Sequence record: MZ417521 | DNA from: Escherichia phage 132 | DNA: 64,000 bases | Strand: one strand, 5' to 3' | Shown: positions 2,219 through 39,032 of the stretch, one piece after another | How positions within the stretch are numbered: the first letter of the stretch is position 1 | Layout: each line of letters starts with the position of its first letter | Made by a program: the position numbers and the translations under genes | The notes under the pieces: generated by a model | Database searches by the model: none | Seen by the model: only the letters and a program-made list of their open reading frames with translations | Told to the model about the DNA's origin: nothing

Positions 2219-3420
2219 TATTTTGTAATAATGTCAAACTGTTCTTTAAAGCAGAAGCTTGAATCTTGATGCTGATACAAAAATTCATAAGCTTTTTCAC
2301 GTTCACGGTCATAAAGAGCTCGGTCAGATGACAGTTCTTTAATACGTTCAAATGTTGATTCCATGTCATTTTCATCAAACCAAACGATACCGCTATCATG
2401 AGAAATTAATGGAGTATTATCAACACGGAATTTTAAATTTTCGCCCGTAGATTTCCAAAATACCGGAATTGTTCCACATGCACCAAGCTCGAGATGAGTG
2501 TATTCTAAAGAACGCTGTAGATATTTTTTGTCCAACTTACTCAGCTGATAACCAAATCCGGATTTACTCATGCGTTCAAGCATTTCGCTATTTACATAAC
2601 GGTCGAGAATTTGCGTTGGCAAATTAGGAGCAATTTTAATTTGGTCTACTTGATGAAGACGATAATACTCGTATGGAATTCCTTTTTCTTTAATAGGAAT
2701 GAACGCTGGAGAACGTTCCAGACCTTCCATAATAGTACTTAGTCCTGCAGGTTTAAGATGTTTTTCGTGAAAATCAAACATCTGATAAAAGCCTTTCCAT
2801 GTAGTAGTACGACCAATCCAACGGTTGATATTCATGTTAATTTCAGAAACATCTTTCCAGTAGGTTGATCGAACCTTCGCAATATCCATAGGAGGCTGGA
2901 AGTTATATACGGTCGGTGCTTCTTCAATATCATCAAACAGAGAAACTGTTTCTGGATACCATTCTTTCATTAAAACTTTATTAAAATCACCATTATCAGA
3001 ATGGCTAAAAATAACATCAGCTCGACGAACAGTTTCTTCTAATCCCAAATTTCGGCGTAAAGAAAGAGAAGAATGGTCATGCTGATAAACTACAACACGA
3101 ACCGAAGGTTTAATATTATCAATAATTTTTTTATAGTTATTAATTGTGTCTTCTTCAACTGAAGTAGCAGGAACTGAATTGATAATTAGAATATCACAAT
3201 CATTTACCAACTTAAGTGTTTTATCGTATTCTTTTGCCAATAAAACCGGAATTGAAAATGACTTATAATCATGTGCGCAATTACGAGTAAATGATTTATC
3301 TTTAGCATAAACCAAAGTTACTTCATGACCATTTTTAATAAACCAATCACGTTGCTCAAGAGAAAATTTAGTTACACCGCAACCTTCAAGACCTCGAGCC
3401 ATAAAAATACATACTTTCAT
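2218..3420 (-). CDS. a-gt: DNA alpha-glucosyltransferase (hmC-DNA glucosylation)
   Basis: 400 aa; recognised as T-even alpha-glucosyltransferase by sequence and by position after gene 47; followed by a hairpin terminator. Confidence 0.85.
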   Translation of the reverse strand: MKVCIFMARGLEGCGVTKFSLEQRDWFIKNGHEVTLVYAKDKSFTRNCAHDYKSFSIPVLLAKEYDKTLKLVNDCDILIINSVPATSVEEDTINNYKKIIDNIKPSVRVVVYQHDHSSLSLRRNLGLEETVRRADVIFSHSDNGDFNKVLMKEWYPETVSLFDDIEEAPTVYNFQPPMDIAKVRSTYWKDVSEINMNINRWIGRTTTWKGFYQMFDFHEKHLKPAGLSTIMEGLERSPAFIPIKEKGIPYEYYRLHQVDQIKIAPNLPTQILDRYVNSEMLERMSKSGFGYQLSKLDKKYLQRSLEYTHLELGACGTIPVFWKSTGENLKFRVDNTPLISHDSGIVWFDENDMESTFERIKELSSDRALYDREREKAYEFLYQHQDSSFCFKEQFDIITK

Positions 3421-3444
3421 TTAATATCCTCATTGTTTTGGTTT

Positions 3445-3470
3445 ATTTTACCAAAAATTTATAAAGCAAT
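3445..3470 (-). promoter_or_regulatory. Middle (MotA-dependent type) promoter candidate for a-gt
   Basis: Minus strand reads ATTGCTTTA (MotA-box-like), 11 nt, TAAAAT; ~25 nt upstream of the a-gt SD. Confidence 0.4.
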
Positions 3471-3471
3471 A

Positions 3472-3489
3472 TAGGAGCCGAAGCTCCTA
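3472..3489 (-). terminator. Hairpin / terminator upstream of a-gt
   Basis: UAGGAGC-UUCG-GCUCCUA hairpin followed by AU-rich sequence. Confidence 0.4.
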
Positions 3490-3660
3490 TCCGCATAATA
3501 CGCCATACAGAGGCTCATTAGAGCTTCTAAATTTTATACGCTTATATGTTATAGTTCCTTCTGCTTTAGCTTTATCATGAGACTCTTTAAAACGTCTCAT
3601 CATTTCTACTTTAGAGGAACGAATTTTATTATAATCTATTTCAGAAGTCTGGGTGTTCAT
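3487..3660 (-). CDS. Hypothetical 57-aa protein
   Basis: Not in the ORF track (below size cutoff). ATG at 3658-3660, TAG at 3487-3489, translation MNTQTSEIDYNKIRSSKVEMMRRFKESHDKAKAEGTITYKRIKFRSSNEPLYGVLCG; weak SD. Confidence 0.3.
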   Translation of the reverse strand: MNTQTSEIDYNKIRSSKVEMMRRFKESHDKAKAEGTITYKRIKFRSSNEPLYGVLCG

Positions 3661-3663
3661 CTT

Positions 3664-3870
3664 TCACAGTTGCCACCATTTTTTGACTTGATAAGAATCA
3701 ACCCACACTTTCATATTAGGGTCTGCTCTTACAATAGGAGGATTAACTTCTTTGATTGAACTATCATGGTATTCTTTTTCAGAAATTTTCACGCAAAGAT
3801 GACCATTCAAAGATTCAGTAAATCCTGCATTAATTTTAAGACGCTTGAATTTTACGTGTGTAAGCATCAA
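3664..3870 (-). CDS. Hypothetical 68-aa protein
   Basis: ORF track; overlaps upstream ORF by 35 nt, so start is uncertain. Confidence 0.3.
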   Translation of the reverse strand: MMLTHVKFKRLKINAGFTESLNGHLCVKISEKEYHDSSIKEVNPPIVRADPNMKVWVDSYQVKKWWQL

Positions 3871-4153
3871 TCATATCCTCAATCTGCGATCTAGTAGTCT
3901 TCCAAAGAATACTAATGAGTTCATCGTTATATGGCTGTTTTAGAATATCCCGACTTTTCTTGATAGCATATTCGTATTGAGCAAAATTATTGTTTTCAGC
4001 TGCAATCTGAGCGTGTTTATAAAGACGGTTCAGTTCGCGTTTATTTTTAGACAATAACTTATTTGCTTTTCTTTCTGCTTCAAGACGGTTCTTTTCTTCA
4101 ATAAAAGAAATAAGCTTTTCCACTTCATCATTAATTTCGGGTTTATCAGTCAT
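3836..4153 (-). CDS. Hypothetical 105-aa protein
   Basis: ORF track; same strand and orientation as neighbours. Confidence 0.5.
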   Translation of the reverse strand: MTDKPEINDEVEKLISFIEEKNRLEAERKANKLLSKNKRELNRLYKHAQIAAENNNFAQYEYAIKKSRDILKQPYNDELISILWKTTRSQIEDMIDAYTRKIQAS

Positions 4154-4154
4154 A

Positions 4155-4373
4155 TTATTTCTCTAATATAAAATAAAAATCATCATCTGTTAAATGATAC
4201 CGATAGTTTAATTCTACACCATTAGATTTAAAAGCGGTATCATACGGATTTTCTGGATCAATATCAATGTCAAGAGCTAAAACTTCCCTGAGATACATTT
4301 TAAGTAAATAGGGAATAGCTTCAACTTCAGGTATTTCTTCCAAGAATCCGGAGAGGTTAATCGTTAGCCTCAT
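4155..4373 (-). CDS. Hypothetical 72-aa acidic protein
   Basis: ORF track; lies immediately downstream of gene 55. Confidence 0.5.
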
Positions 4374-7125: not shown

Positions 7126-7338
7126 CTATTCCTTACTAAGAGCAGCATTCAGCTTGTTAGTAATTTTATCCAGACGCTTATTGAACTCACTAGAAGATAA
7201 GCCTTTTTCTGGAGAAATTAAGCTAATCACGAAAAATATAGCAATAAAAGGAATAAGAAAAATAGCACCAACTGCCATAAACAAAAAGAACGTTACAGTT
7301 GTAAGAAAATCAGCTAAACCTTTACGAAATTTATACAT
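7126..7338 (-). CDS. Small membrane protein (one or two TM helices)
   Basis: 70 aa, hydrophobic core FLFMAVGAIFLIPFIAIFFVISL. Confidence 0.5.
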   Translation of the reverse strand: MYKFRKGLADFLTTVTFFLFMAVGAIFLIPFIAIFFVISLISPEKGLSSSEFNKRLDKITNKLNAALSKE

Positions 7339-16957: not shown

Positions 16958-17365
16958 TCACTCAATTTCAATTTTACTAAATACACAGAATATGATTGAA
17001 CAGACTACATAAGCGCCACACACGGATTGAACTAATACCATCCCAAAGAACCAAACAATATTATCAAACAATGTCTGTTTTACGTCGAAAGGACGTAAAC
17101 TTACAGTAATATTATCACCTTTTTCTATTGAAGAATACATCTCTGGGGAAATATATTCACTAAATCTATAACCATCTTTGAGTTCATATACGGCAATAAA
17201 CGATAAACTAGACCCTTTTCCTTGTGTTCCTGTAATGGTATTAACTACAGTAACATCATAATCTTTATAATGCATATAATCATTAATTGCGTAATAACCA
17301 TATGCAATTACTACACATAAACAACATATCAATAAATTCAATCTTTTAATTATCAACTGTTTCAT
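16958..17365 (-). CDS. Membrane protein (N- and C-terminal TM helices)
   Basis: 135 aa; hydrophobic segments LLICCLCVVIAYGYYAI and VWFFGMVLVQSVCGAYVVCSIIFCVF. Confidence 0.55.
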   Translation of the reverse strand: MKQLIIKRLNLLICCLCVVIAYGYYAINDYMHYKDYDVTVVNTITGTQGKGSSLSFIAVYELKDGYRFSEYISPEMYSSIEKGDNITVSLRPFDVKQTLFDNIVWFFGMVLVQSVCGAYVVCSIIFCVFSKIEIE

Positions 17366-23768: not shown

Positions 23769-24155
23769 TTATTCGAGGGAAAGAAGATATTTACTCTGGT
23801 AAAACATTCCAGTAATATCATCTATCGTGCTTTGGATGGCTGGAGGCATTTCTTTATAAATGCTGTTAGATTGGTCTAGTATGCGATCAATCATTTTAAT
23901 TGTGTCGGTAGGAAGTTTACTAGCATCTGGAATTGAAGGTGTGTATTTTCTACCAGAATACCCCAAATACTGCTCACCAAATTTGTCAATCAAATCTGGT
24001 AACTCAGAAAAAATAAAATCGTATGCTTTGTGCCTAGCATAACTTTTAGTTTCAAAATGTGCAGAATGAAAATAAGCTTGCGCAGCCATTAATAAACCTA
24101 AGTATTCATCTGCCTTTGAAGGTTTTCCACTTTGTGAAAAGTCGCTGAATTTCAT
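23769..24155 (-). CDS. Hypothetical 128-aa protein (position of T4 rI.-1)
   Basis: ORF track; 4-nt overlap with rI; followed by a UUCG-loop terminator. Confidence 0.55.
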
Positions 24156-24445
24156 TCAGTCTCCAATTTAATGTTCATAATTCTAGCGTATGATTGTGCC
24201 ATCTCCGCGCCTCGTTCTATACATTCAAAATCAGAAGAGCACGGGTCATTTTTATAGGTCGTTCTCATAAAACTATAGAACTGTTCAGATGATTCTACGC
24301 TTTTATTTTCAAAAAGCATATAAACGTGCCTAATACCAGATTCCATAAATTTATCAAAATGAGGATCGACATTCGCTTCAATCGATGGAGATAAAACAAA
24401 TGACAATCCTAGCATGGCAAAAAGTGCCGTTGCTTTTAAGGCCAT
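24152..24445 (-). CDS. rI: Lysis-inhibition regulator RI (periplasmic antiholin, signal-anchor N-terminus)
   Basis: 97 aa, MALKATALFAMLGLSFVLSPSIEA signal-anchor; length and sequence match my recollection of T4 RI; GGAGG SD. Confidence 0.7.
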   Translation of the reverse strand: MALKATALFAMLGLSFVLSPSIEANVDPHFDKFMESGIRHVYMLFENKSVESSEQFYSFMRTTYKNDPCSSDFECIERGAEMAQSYARIMNIKLETE

Positions 24446-25862: not shown

Positions 25863-26071
25863 AACCATGTCACCTTCAAGCAATATTCTTCTACATGCTG
25901 TTTACGACCTTTCTTATCAATAAAGGTATATTCAACGAATGTTCCAATGTAGTCTTTATCTACATCATGTAGGCTATTAATTGGGCATTTAGTACGGCAA
26001 ATGCGTTCCCATTGACGAATAATTTCTGCTTTGTTTTTAGGATCAAACGGATGCGGGTAATGCACTTTCAT
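25859..26071 (-). CDS. Hypothetical 70-aa protein
   Basis: ORF track; overlaps the macro-domain gene stop by 29 nt. Confidence 0.45.
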   Translation of the reverse strand: MKVHYPHPFDPKNKAEIIRQWERICRTKCPINSLHDVDKDYIGTFVEYTFIDKKGRKQHVEEYCLKVTWL

Positions 26072-26522
26072 AATCCACCACTATTAAATCAATATCAGGA
26101 GTAAACATGTCGATTAATTTAGAAACCTTATCCCAATCACCGCCAGCAATACCACAACCTATGCGTGGAATGTAAATTACTGGTTTAAACAAAAGGGTTT
26201 CTGCCTGTAGATTTAATTCTATCATGCAGTTTACTAAAGCACCATAATCAAGATTAGGACCTGGTTCGTATTGCGTATACAGGTTATAGCATATACCAAA
26301 ACCATTAGGTTTATGTTTAAAAACAATAGACATATCGCCTAATTTATCACGCGAACCATATTCAGTTGTGGTCTTATCTATTTCTAAAATTTTGGGATAG
26401 GCTCTTGCTAATTGACCCGCTACACCTGAACCCATAGTATGAAAACAGTTACACCCATGCGCAATAATATTACCTTGAAGAAATAGGGCGACAATATCGC
26501 CCTTGATATATTTTACAATCAT
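26043..26522 (-). CDS. Macro-domain-like protein (putative ADP-ribose binding/hydrolase)
   Basis: 159 aa; motifs GDIV...NIIAHGCNC, GSGVAGQL, IYIPRIGCGIAGG line up with macro-domain signatures. Confidence 0.5.
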   Translation of the reverse strand: MIVKYIKGDIVALFLQGNIIAHGCNCFHTMGSGVAGQLARAYPKILEIDKTTTEYGSRDKLGDMSIVFKHKPNGFGICYNLYTQYEPGPNLDYGALVNCMIELNLQAETLLFKPVIYIPRIGCGIAGGDWDKVSKLIDMFTPDIDLIVVDYESALPASV

Positions 26523-26866
26523 CTAGTACTCAATCCTCGATTATAAGAATCTACCAAACGGTCAACCATTGAATGACAAGCGGCTTTATCTTTCTCCTCC
26601 GCAACTGAACATTCTAAGGTATTCCACTTTTTAGCATATCGTTTTAATAATGTATCGTTTTTGTATCTGCTTGATTTATCTCTTTCTCCGTCTTTATATG
26701 CATATATTAATTTCTGTGCAAATTCAGCTTGGCATGCTTTATTTTTCCCACAATAATCTGCCGCAGTGCGGTTTACATATTCTCTAATTTCAGTATATGA
26801 TGTATCTGCTGACGCAGAAGCAGAAAATGAAATTAATCCTATACATAAAACCAAAATTTTAGTCAT
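26519..26866 (-). CDS. Secreted/periplasmic small protein with signal peptide (position of T4 vs)
   Basis: 115 aa; N-terminus MTKILVLCIGLISFSASASA; several Cys. Confidence 0.5.
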   Translation of the reverse strand: MTKILVLCIGLISFSASASADTSYTEIREYVNRTAADYCGKNKACQAEFAQKLIYAYKDGERDKSSRYKNDTLLKRYAKKWNTLECSVAEEKDKAACHSMVDRLVDSYNRGLSTR

Positions 26867-27404
26867 TTACTATTTCCAAAAGTTTATTATTTTTAAGGTA
26901 ATTAGCCTTTTCTAGGACTTCAGAAGCATATTTAGAACCTGCTTTAACATTCCATCCCGAATTATAAGAGGATATTGCTTTTCTTATATCGCCCTTATGT
27001 ATATTTAACCAATAAGAAAGTTCAATGTACGCCCAGGAAGCTGAATTGGACCGTTTATTCAACATTCTTTTTATTTCAGCATCAGTCATATTATAACCAA
27101 GTTCCTTAACTCTTGCTCGCATAGTAGGCAAATAATTTTGGAACATTCCATAAGCGTGATGCTTTGGTTTAGATTTTAAATTAACTCCGCCAGAGCTTTC
27201 TTGCCATAAAATGGCTGCCATTATATGACCCAATCCACTCTTGTGGATATTTTTGTGTGTTTTATATTTTCCATCCTTAGAAAATTGTTCCCCGAATTGA
27301 TACGCGTAACGCATGTTATCGAGTTGGACATTACTGAAAGTATGCTCGGAGCTATGTGCCATCATTGAAATGGCCAATAGACCAGCGAGTAGTGCTTTTC
27401 TCAT
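26859..27404 (-). CDS. Periplasmic lytic transglycosylase-like protein (lysozyme-like fold) with signal peptide
   Basis: 181 aa; signal peptide MRKALLAGLLAISMMAHS; transglycosylase-like motifs ILWQESSGG and SYNSGW. Confidence 0.55.
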   Translation of the reverse strand: MRKALLAGLLAISMMAHSSEHTFSNVQLDNMRYAYQFGEQFSKDGKYKTHKNIHKSGLGHIMAAILWQESSGGVNLKSKPKHHAYGMFQNYLPTMRARVKELGYNMTDAEIKRMLNKRSNSASWAYIELSYWLNIHKGDIRKAISSYNSGWNVKAGSKYASEVLEKANYLKNNKLLEIVND

Positions 27405-27900: not shown

Positions 27901-27930
27901 ATTATACCACAGTCAAGAGGAAAAGTAAAC
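27901..27930 (-). promoter_or_regulatory. Early sigma70-type promoter
   Basis: Minus strand GTTTAC-N18-TGG-TATAAT; upstream of regB. Confidence 0.65.
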
Positions 27931-38846: not shown

Positions 38847-39032
38847 TTATTCACCTTTAGAAATTTTATCCATAACAATAGCAATTAAACCAATTAAAAA
38901 TGCTACTACAAGTGAAAACACATTTTCTGCTGTAGTTAATAATCCGCATATAAATCCAACAAACATTGAAAAACTAAAAGCGGAAGCAGAAATTGCAATA
39001 GCAACATTTCGAATTAATTCACAACGTTTCAT
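38847..39032 (-). CDS. Small membrane protein (2 TM)
   Basis: 61 aa, hydrophobic; early promoter upstream. Confidence 0.45.
   Translation of the reverse strand: MKRCELIRNVAIAISASAFSFSMFVGFICGLLTTAENVFSLVVAFLIGLIAIVMDKISKGE

Follow-up and report, generated by a model that had tools for sequence, protein, structure and literature searches.

Does the vs gene of T4-like phages encode a cytoplasmic modifier of the host valyl-tRNA synthetase (ValRS), as its name indicates, or an exported companion of the enzyme specified by its upstream neighbor, vs.1? The question is raised by a stretch of 64,000 nucleotides from Escherichia phage 132 (sequence record MZ417521; "the window" hereafter means this whole stretch), in which two minus-strand open reading frames (ORFs) occupy positions 26519-27404, exactly where an initial annotation had placed two early proteins with signal peptides. 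That annotation did not recognize them as the T4 genes vs.1 and vs, although both are well known. The first, vs.1 or T4 ORF 61.4 (26859..27404, minus strand), encodes a 181-aa protein predicted to be a Sec-exported single-domain SLT/GH23 lytic transglycosylase, and the second, vs or T4 ORF 60.9 (26519..26866, minus strand), encodes a 115-aa protein annotated as valyl-tRNA synthetase modifier. Each protein is 100% identical to its counterpart in the T4 "early region" record of 1986 (X04567), and the DNA is about 98% identical to that of many Tequatrovirus genomes. In RB3 and other related genomes the two genes lie between regB and tk.4 and carry the labels vs.1 (hypothetical) and vs (valyl-tRNA synthetase modifier); Vs was assigned to PHROG 1256 (E 1.7e-39) and to the Pfam family PF26829. 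What is new here is comparative evidence suggesting that the product of vs is exported and that its gene is tied to vs.1, and the balance tips slightly toward a reading of vs.1 and vs as an early, translationally coupled and co-exported pair, composed of a lytic transglycosylase and a small accessory protein.

The assignment of cleavable-looking signal peptides to both proteins in the initial annotation held up under a fixed heuristic, which calls for a positive n-region, an uncharged hydrophobic core of 10 residues and small residues at positions -3 and -1. Only 6 of the 102 long ORFs of the window passed it, including Vs.1, Vs and RI (24152-24445, minus strand), a known exported T4 protein that serves as a positive control; the others (7126..7338, 16958..17365 and 38847..39032, minus strand) are small and look membrane-anchored, not cleavable. 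By the same heuristic, Vs.1 and Vs both resemble substrates of Sec and signal peptidase I, for which a hydrophobic core of 7-15 residues is expected, and have no later membrane segment. Vs begins with MTK, a core of ILVLCIGLISF and SASASA before D, and its putative signal peptide (residues 1-20, MTKILVLCIGLISFSASASA, followed by D; 26807..26866, minus strand) has an n/h/c architecture with an A-S-A site. In Vs.1, MRK, the core ALLAGLLAISMMA and AHS before S form a candidate signal peptide of similar architecture (residues 1-18, MRKALLAGLLAISMMAHS, followed by S; 27351..27404, minus strand). Cleavage after AHS would yield a mature Vs.1 of about 18.8 kDa, and cleavage after ASA would reduce Vs from a calculated 13.1 kDa to about 11.0 kDa. 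In the AlphaFold2 (AF2) models, residues 1-20 of Vs lie outside the fold with a predicted local distance difference test (pLDDT) score below 50, and those of Vs.1 score about 60.

These features extend to both families. The n/h/c pattern is kept despite sequence drift in the 33 homologues, down to 40% identity, in which conservation of Vs.1 was judged; relatives of Vs.1 from Felixounavirus, Kuttervirus and Aeromonas phages also carry signal peptides, and signal-bearing relatives thus occur outside Straboviridae. All 43 distinct Vs-family proteins have a signal-like N-terminus, with a positive n-region and an uncharged core of 11-20 residues, while the sequence itself varies. In four distinct Vs proteins (loci L037, L038, L041 and L053) a canonical lipobox (pattern L-[AS]-[GA]-C), here LSGC (as ALSGC before K), replaces the signal peptidase I site, suggesting that some Vs relatives are lipidated rather than cleaved by that peptidase; the T4-type Vs of the window has no lipobox. 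The only methionines of Vs are M1 and M100, which leaves no internal start for a signal-less isoform. Export of Vs is, on these grounds, likely. Vs with an N-terminal His tag was insoluble when made in E. coli (PMC8076793), as expected of a blocked signal peptide, though such behavior is not specific.

Downstream of its signal, Vs is modeled by AF2 as four helices (residues 22-39, 43-63, 70-86 and 91-112) with pLDDT above 90. Four cysteines, arranged as C39-x5-C45 and C86-x10-C97 (26576..26752, minus strand), are situated at two helix-loop-helix corners. Among 13 close homologues none of the four varies; in an alignment of 19 diverse members C39, C45 and C97 are invariant and C86 is not flagged, which we take to be an alignment offset. 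The arrangement suggests disulfide bonding. A fold search with the Vs model returned no informative neighbor, PDB sequence searches with two Vs profiles returned nothing significant, and HMMER over 1.84 billion representatives returned 8 Vs relatives only, with no cellular homologues detectable at that sensitivity. Judged by sequence and model, Vs appears to be a four-helix protein confined to phages and marked by four conserved cysteines, and we read it as an exported accessory protein. The proposal of the initial annotation that both proteins are murein-active stands by homology for Vs.1 and does not extend to Vs, which has no similarity to any wall enzyme. Lysozyme inhibitors of the LprI/DUF1311 family (PF07007) are helical proteins with four cysteines. 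A kinship of Vs with them was considered and found no support: with E allowed up to 10, none of the 19 diverse Vs proteins gave a Pfam match to PF07007, hhalign of Vs against E. coli YecT gave a probability of 6%, and against a YecT-family profile, shallow and built of close YecT relatives only, just the signal peptides aligned. A natural variant of Vs, of 85 aa, occurs at locus L022 (3041-3298), where an in-frame deletion has removed the first cysteine pair and helix 2 and kept the signal peptide.

The presumed partner has a better defined ancestry. The initial annotation had called one of the two proteins transglycosylase-like on account of two motifs, ILWQESSGG and SYNSGW; these are present in Vs.1 at residues 65-73 and 146-151, and the Pfam SLT domain (PF01464) matches residues 61-154 above threshold (25.1 bits against a gathering threshold of 21.3; E 1.4e-5). 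Motif I, LWQESSGG (27186..27209, minus strand), contains Glu69 (codon 27198-27200), which is invariant in the 33 homologues, the E69-S70 pair being invariant or nearly so. Motif II, AYGMFQNY (27132..27155, minus strand), is the equivalent of G-L-M-Q in family 1 transglycosylases, with G86, F88, Q89, N90 and Y91 invariant, and motif III, SYNSGW (26952..26969, minus strand), is the equivalent of A-Y-N-x-G, with Y147, N148 and G150 invariant. The catalytic glutamate could be located on alignment, since hhalign places WQES...GMFQ of Vs.1 on RQES...GLMQ of Slt70 and E69 on E505 of the precursor, the catalytic Glu478 of the mature enzyme. When the AF2 model of Vs.1 (pLDDT 89.6; predicted template modeling score 0.83) was compared with the PDB by Foldseek, the best 33 matches all belonged to the lysozyme superfamily (transglycosylases, g-type lysozyme, GH23/GH19 chitinases and muramidases), with MltD, g-type lysozyme, a GH23 chitinase, Slt, LtgA, phi6 P5 and T7 gp16 as leading neighbors. 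Weak matches in PHROGs pointed to the lytic domains found in tail proteins and internal virion proteins; sequence searches of the PDB, made with Vs.1 and with its profile, gave nothing significant, and an NCBIfam search nothing useful. Vs.1 can thus be placed, by sequence and predicted fold, in the SLT/GH23 lysozyme-like superfamily with all three family 1 lytic transglycosylase motifs, and the prediction of an enzyme is sound, its activity being a predicted one. The SLT similarity itself is already known, having been published in 2003-2006: Nolan et al. (2006) reported it for vs.1 of six T4-like phages, citing earlier PSI-BLAST matches (PMC1524935), and several Vs.1 homologues are named "Transglycosylase SLT domain-containing protein" in UniRef. 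The muralytic proteins usually ascribed to T4 are two, e and gp5 (PMC7650644), to which Vs.1 would add a third that is early and exported and that recurs in over 2000 phage records from several families.

The linkage between the two genes was examined in 51 viral loci (T4-like) encoding Vs.1 relatives. A Vs profile detected a family member directly downstream of vs.1 in 49 of them, and inspection revealed obvious relatives in the remaining two. In all 51 loci vs starts at -8 to +3 nt from the vs.1 stop, whereas the spacing between vs and tk.4 varies from -4 to +646 nt. Nine loci lack a detectable tk.4, six of these also a detectable regB, and the vs.1-vs pair is kept there. In the window the end of vs.1 and the beginning of vs share 8 nt (ATGACTAA; 26859..26866, minus strand), an arrangement that suggests translational coupling. 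Vs.1 is found in 2045 phage records and Vs in 795, and this far wider distribution of Vs.1 makes Vs appear as an accessory specific to T4-like phages. Both genes belong to the T4 early region, behind regB, in agreement with the early character given to them by the initial annotation. An early-type promoter (GTTTACT, 17 nt, TGgTATAAT; 27901..27929, minus strand), with 10 of 12 consensus matches and an extended -10 element, precedes the regB start by about 30 nt and is the probable origin of a regB-vs.1-vs-tk.4 transcript, a lead drawn from sequence. The promoter scan as a whole found 8 sites against 9.8 expected in shuffled sequences, i.e. no enrichment, and only the regB promoter is noteworthy.

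Published fitness data for T4 bear on both genes. A transposon study found vs and vs.1 to be non-essential, with 46 of 52 TA sites hit in vs.1, and because vs.1 is dispensable, a role of Vs.1 other than lysis is plausible, as the initial annotation had supposed. In liquid LB competition, insertions in vs and vs.1 were about 10-fold rarer than in regB, tk.4 or vs.3. In M9 glucose, vs insertions had a log2 fold change of -2.19 (adjusted p printed as 0.00000) and vs.1 insertions one of -0.87 (p 0.0055, adjusted p 0.155), and a clean vs deletion plaqued poorly on M9. The pattern is consistent with a common pathway and speaks against a pure toxin-antidote pair.

We therefore propose the following working model for a transglycosylase and its accessory protein. 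Transcription of vs.1 and vs would be early and led by regB, and their translation coupled. Sec would export both products and signal peptidase I would trim them, Vs.1 after AHS and Vs after ASA, and oxidation in the periplasm would form disulfides stapling the helices of Vs. Vs.1 would then cleave MurNAc-GlcNAc bonds, with Glu69 as single acid/base, and leave 1,6-anhydro-MurNAc ends. Vs would bind Vs.1 and tune or target it, more likely as a helper than as a pure antidote, by analogy with Spackle and the lysozyme domain of gp5. Spackle (gp61.3) is an early, all-helical protein of 97 aa that loses a signal peptide of about 20 residues by cleavage, has a disulfide and a novel fold, and binds the gp5 lysozyme domain 1:1 in the periplasm (PMC7650644, PMC7677548); Vs resembles it in being a T4 early protein of similar length (about 100 aa) that has a putative signal peptide and is predicted to be all-helical. 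The outcome would be limited, local wall remodeling of the infected cell during the latent period, not release lysis. We give a functional link between Vs and Vs.1 about an even chance. Candidate purposes of the pair are latent-period wall remodeling, tolerance of envelope stress in poor media, exclusion and lysis timing; the superinfection exclusion or wall remodeling put forward in the initial annotation is pure conjecture.

Several points weigh against this model. The enzymatic, localization and interaction roles given to Vs.1 and Vs come from sequence, structure models and analogy; the pairwise hhalign match of Vs.1 to Slt70 is weak (E 0.29), and its Foldseek scores are marginal (E from 8.7e-3 at best to 0.5, TM 0.42-0.53). 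The cysteines of Vs could bind a metal rather than form disulfides. The tight vs.1-vs linkage is evidence of co-expression and not of physical interaction, and vs.1 insertions may be simply polar on vs, with insertion counts open to bias. No recognizable Vs was found beside the Vs.1 relatives of Felixounavirus, Kuttervirus and Aeromonas phage 31, from which it follows that Vs is not needed for the enzyme as such. Mutants in vs show a defect on a temperature-sensitive valS host, and this implies an action in the cytoplasm in vivo. Finally, the vs product binds host ValRS, a cytoplasmic target, according to the classical work that is the origin of the label (Muller and Marchin 1975, 1977, as cited in PMC8076793).

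The last three observations lead to the best surviving alternative, namely that Vs is a cytoplasmic tau peptide binding host ValRS, its N-terminus being no working export signal or export being partial, with its adjacency to vs.1 mere operon packing and Vs.1 acting alone in the periplasm. The function attached to the name also includes a change of ValRS to a urea-stable form. The defect of the vs deletion, specific to minimal medium, where amino-acid supply matters, also agrees with such a role. We nevertheless regard this explanation as somewhat unlikely. The Vs encoded here is 100% identical to the T4 ORF of that name, but the hallmarks of export in its family (signal or lipobox, four conserved cysteines, coupling to an exported enzyme) are unexpected for a cytoplasmic synthetase binder. 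A signal-like N-terminus kept in every family member despite drift, and swapped for a lipobox in four, can hardly be reconciled with a cytoplasmic protein, and the lack of an internal methionine leaves no obvious route to a signal-less form. The cytoplasmic location needed for ValRS binding is in this respect contradicted by prediction across the Vs family. Purified tau factor has a mass of about 10 kDa, nearer to that of cleaved Vs than to that of the precursor, and cleavage occurs outside the cytoplasm. Moreover, ORF 60.9 was left without a gene name in the original 1986 record. Full-text literature searches found nothing on Vs localization.

If Vs is exported as proposed, the label of ValRS modifier would come from assignment to the wrong ORF, from a secondary role, or from a fraction of Vs that stays unexported and binds the synthetase; the conflict as a whole may stem from a misassigned ORF, a dual location or a non-functional signal. 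In its most far-reaching form, which we put forward tentatively and hold to be doubtful as a whole, the proposal is that the "valyl-tRNA synthetase modifier" ORF of about 800 phage genomes specifies a partner, exported and stapled by disulfides, of a lytic transglycosylase that acts early in the periplasm, that a conserved envelope-remodeling module and not ValRS modification lies behind the minimal-medium defect of vs, and that the classical vs/tau function belongs to another ORF or is a side activity. Were Vs a periplasmic partner of Vs.1, a long-standing T4 gene assignment would need re-examination, the recently reported minimal-medium phenotype of vs would be explained differently, and the annotation of hundreds of genomes would be misleading. 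Were the textbook view true, a family-wide signal peptide and a lipobox on a cytoplasmic protein would need explaining.

A second alternative keeps Vs in the periplasm and makes it a dedicated inhibitor of Vs.1, an antidote silencing the transglycosylase until some trigger, such that loss of vs is harmful as Vs.1 runs free. The strict linkage and coupling, by which Vs would be made just after the enzyme, agree with this idea, as does the stronger phenotype of the vs knock-out (-2.19 against -0.87 for vs.1), and there are precedents in Spackle with gp5, and, by likeness, in Ivy and LprI acting on lysozymes. However, vs.1 insertions are depleted in both LB and M9, whereas a phage with a pure toxin-antidote pair should lose the enzyme, or both proteins through polarity, at no cost, and Vs has no homology to LprI. 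We consider a dedicated inhibitor unlikely.

The remaining alternatives concern Vs.1. It is very unlikely that Vs.1 is a peptidoglycan-binding or goose-lysozyme-like hydrolytic protein rather than a lytic transglycosylase: GH23 includes both lysozymes and transglycosylases, g-type lysozyme ranks with the best matches of Vs.1 by fold and by profile (the profile match, a weak one, joins the motif III region to the same region of goose-type lysozyme), and a second acidic residue, E128, is invariant in the 33 homologues, but no Asp is conserved among these homologues after E69 at the position used by g-type lysozymes, for which reason a transglycosylase is favored, and the motifs fit family 1 transglycosylases. 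An equally remote idea, that Vs.1 is a membrane-tethered auxiliary lysin of the signal-arrest-release (SAR) type acting in lysis timing and not in early wall remodeling, draws on its Ala/Gly/Ser-rich h-region, like that of SAR domains, on T4 RI, two kb away, which is said to use a SAR domain, and on a Felixounavirus relative labeled "putative lysin" about 1.2 kb upstream of spanin genes, and is opposed by the good A-x-S cleavage site after the h-region, by the position of vs.1 in the early region and not adjoining t or e, by its dispensability and by the failure of T4 e mutants to lyse, which means that Vs.1 cannot stand in for the endolysin.

Compared with known systems, the predicted transglycosylase Vs.1 shares its E-S, G-x-x-Q and Y-N-x-G motifs and lysozyme-like helical fold with family 1 lytic transglycosylases (SLT PF01464, GH23), such as E. 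coli Slt70 and P. aeruginosa MltD, but has only about 160 mature residues and lacks any superhelical, LysM or lipoprotein module; it is encoded by a phage and produced early, and its identity to solved members is 13-16%. The secretion and pilus transglycosylases VirB1, IpgF/IagB, EtgA and P19 likewise consist of one SLT domain behind a Sec signal, with 150-200 aa, and are thought to open local gaps in the wall, often under the control of a partner. Unlike these, vs.1 has no genes of a secretion or assembly machine nearby, its neighbors being regB and a macro-domain anti-defense gene, and the proposed partner Vs has no counterpart in VirB1-type systems. The same catalytic fold is found in the N-terminal domain of T7 gp16, in phi6 P5 and in phiKZ-type SLT endolysins; these are virion components or late lysis enzymes, whereas Vs.1 is small, free-standing, signal-bearing, early and dispensable.

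The gene order around the pair varies in more distant phages, where vs is followed by one to three more exported ORFs. Several non-Tequatrovirus T4-like loci (L034, L035, L039, L043, L047 and L051-L057; about 3270-4350 per locus) encode, after vs, a third exported protein that is conserved and about 130-147 aa long, with a signal followed by A, a predicted cut, WE and often GYPE. In L051, L052 and L054-L057, whose Vs.1 is only about 40% identical, this protein is followed by two more small, mostly signal-bearing ORFs, such that four or five consecutive ORFs are predicted to be exported. In Felixounavirus finno (L004, 2501-3049) the signal-bearing Vs.1 relative comes right after rIIA-rIIB, and in Kuttervirus Det7 (L005, 2453-3070) it is gp70, a 205-aa protein with a signal peptide and extra cysteines. 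In Aeromonas phage 31 (L006, 3356-3796) the interval between vs.1 and tk.4 holds a predicted lipoprotein of 146 aa (MKKSIATLIAIGMYGC...) and an ORF of 75 aa; the lipoprotein occupies the position of vs but is unrelated and was rejected as a Vs relative.

Annotation of the two genes has drifted in public records. The vs product is often labeled "valyl-tRNA synthetase", i.e. the enzyme itself, and some vs.1 homologues carry the labels "endoribonuclease", "RegB" or "C-type lysozyme/alpha-lactalbumin family protein". The flanking genes of the window are recognized by Pfam as REGB_T4 upstream and Macro downstream. The latter, tk.4 (26043-26522, minus strand), encodes a macro-domain protein of 159 aa here and 155 aa in some T4 records, which a 2025 preprint names AdfM, an anti-DarTG2 factor. 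The 3' end of vs overlaps the tk.4 start by ATGA, and RNA from this junction (26460-26560, minus strand) folds better than shuffled sequences (z -2.57), one of its stems masking the Shine-Dalgarno sequence and AUG of tk.4. A terminator-like, G+C-rich hairpin (26485-26503) lies within the first tk.4 codons, and these hairpins may control tk.4 translation or cause partial termination of transcription.

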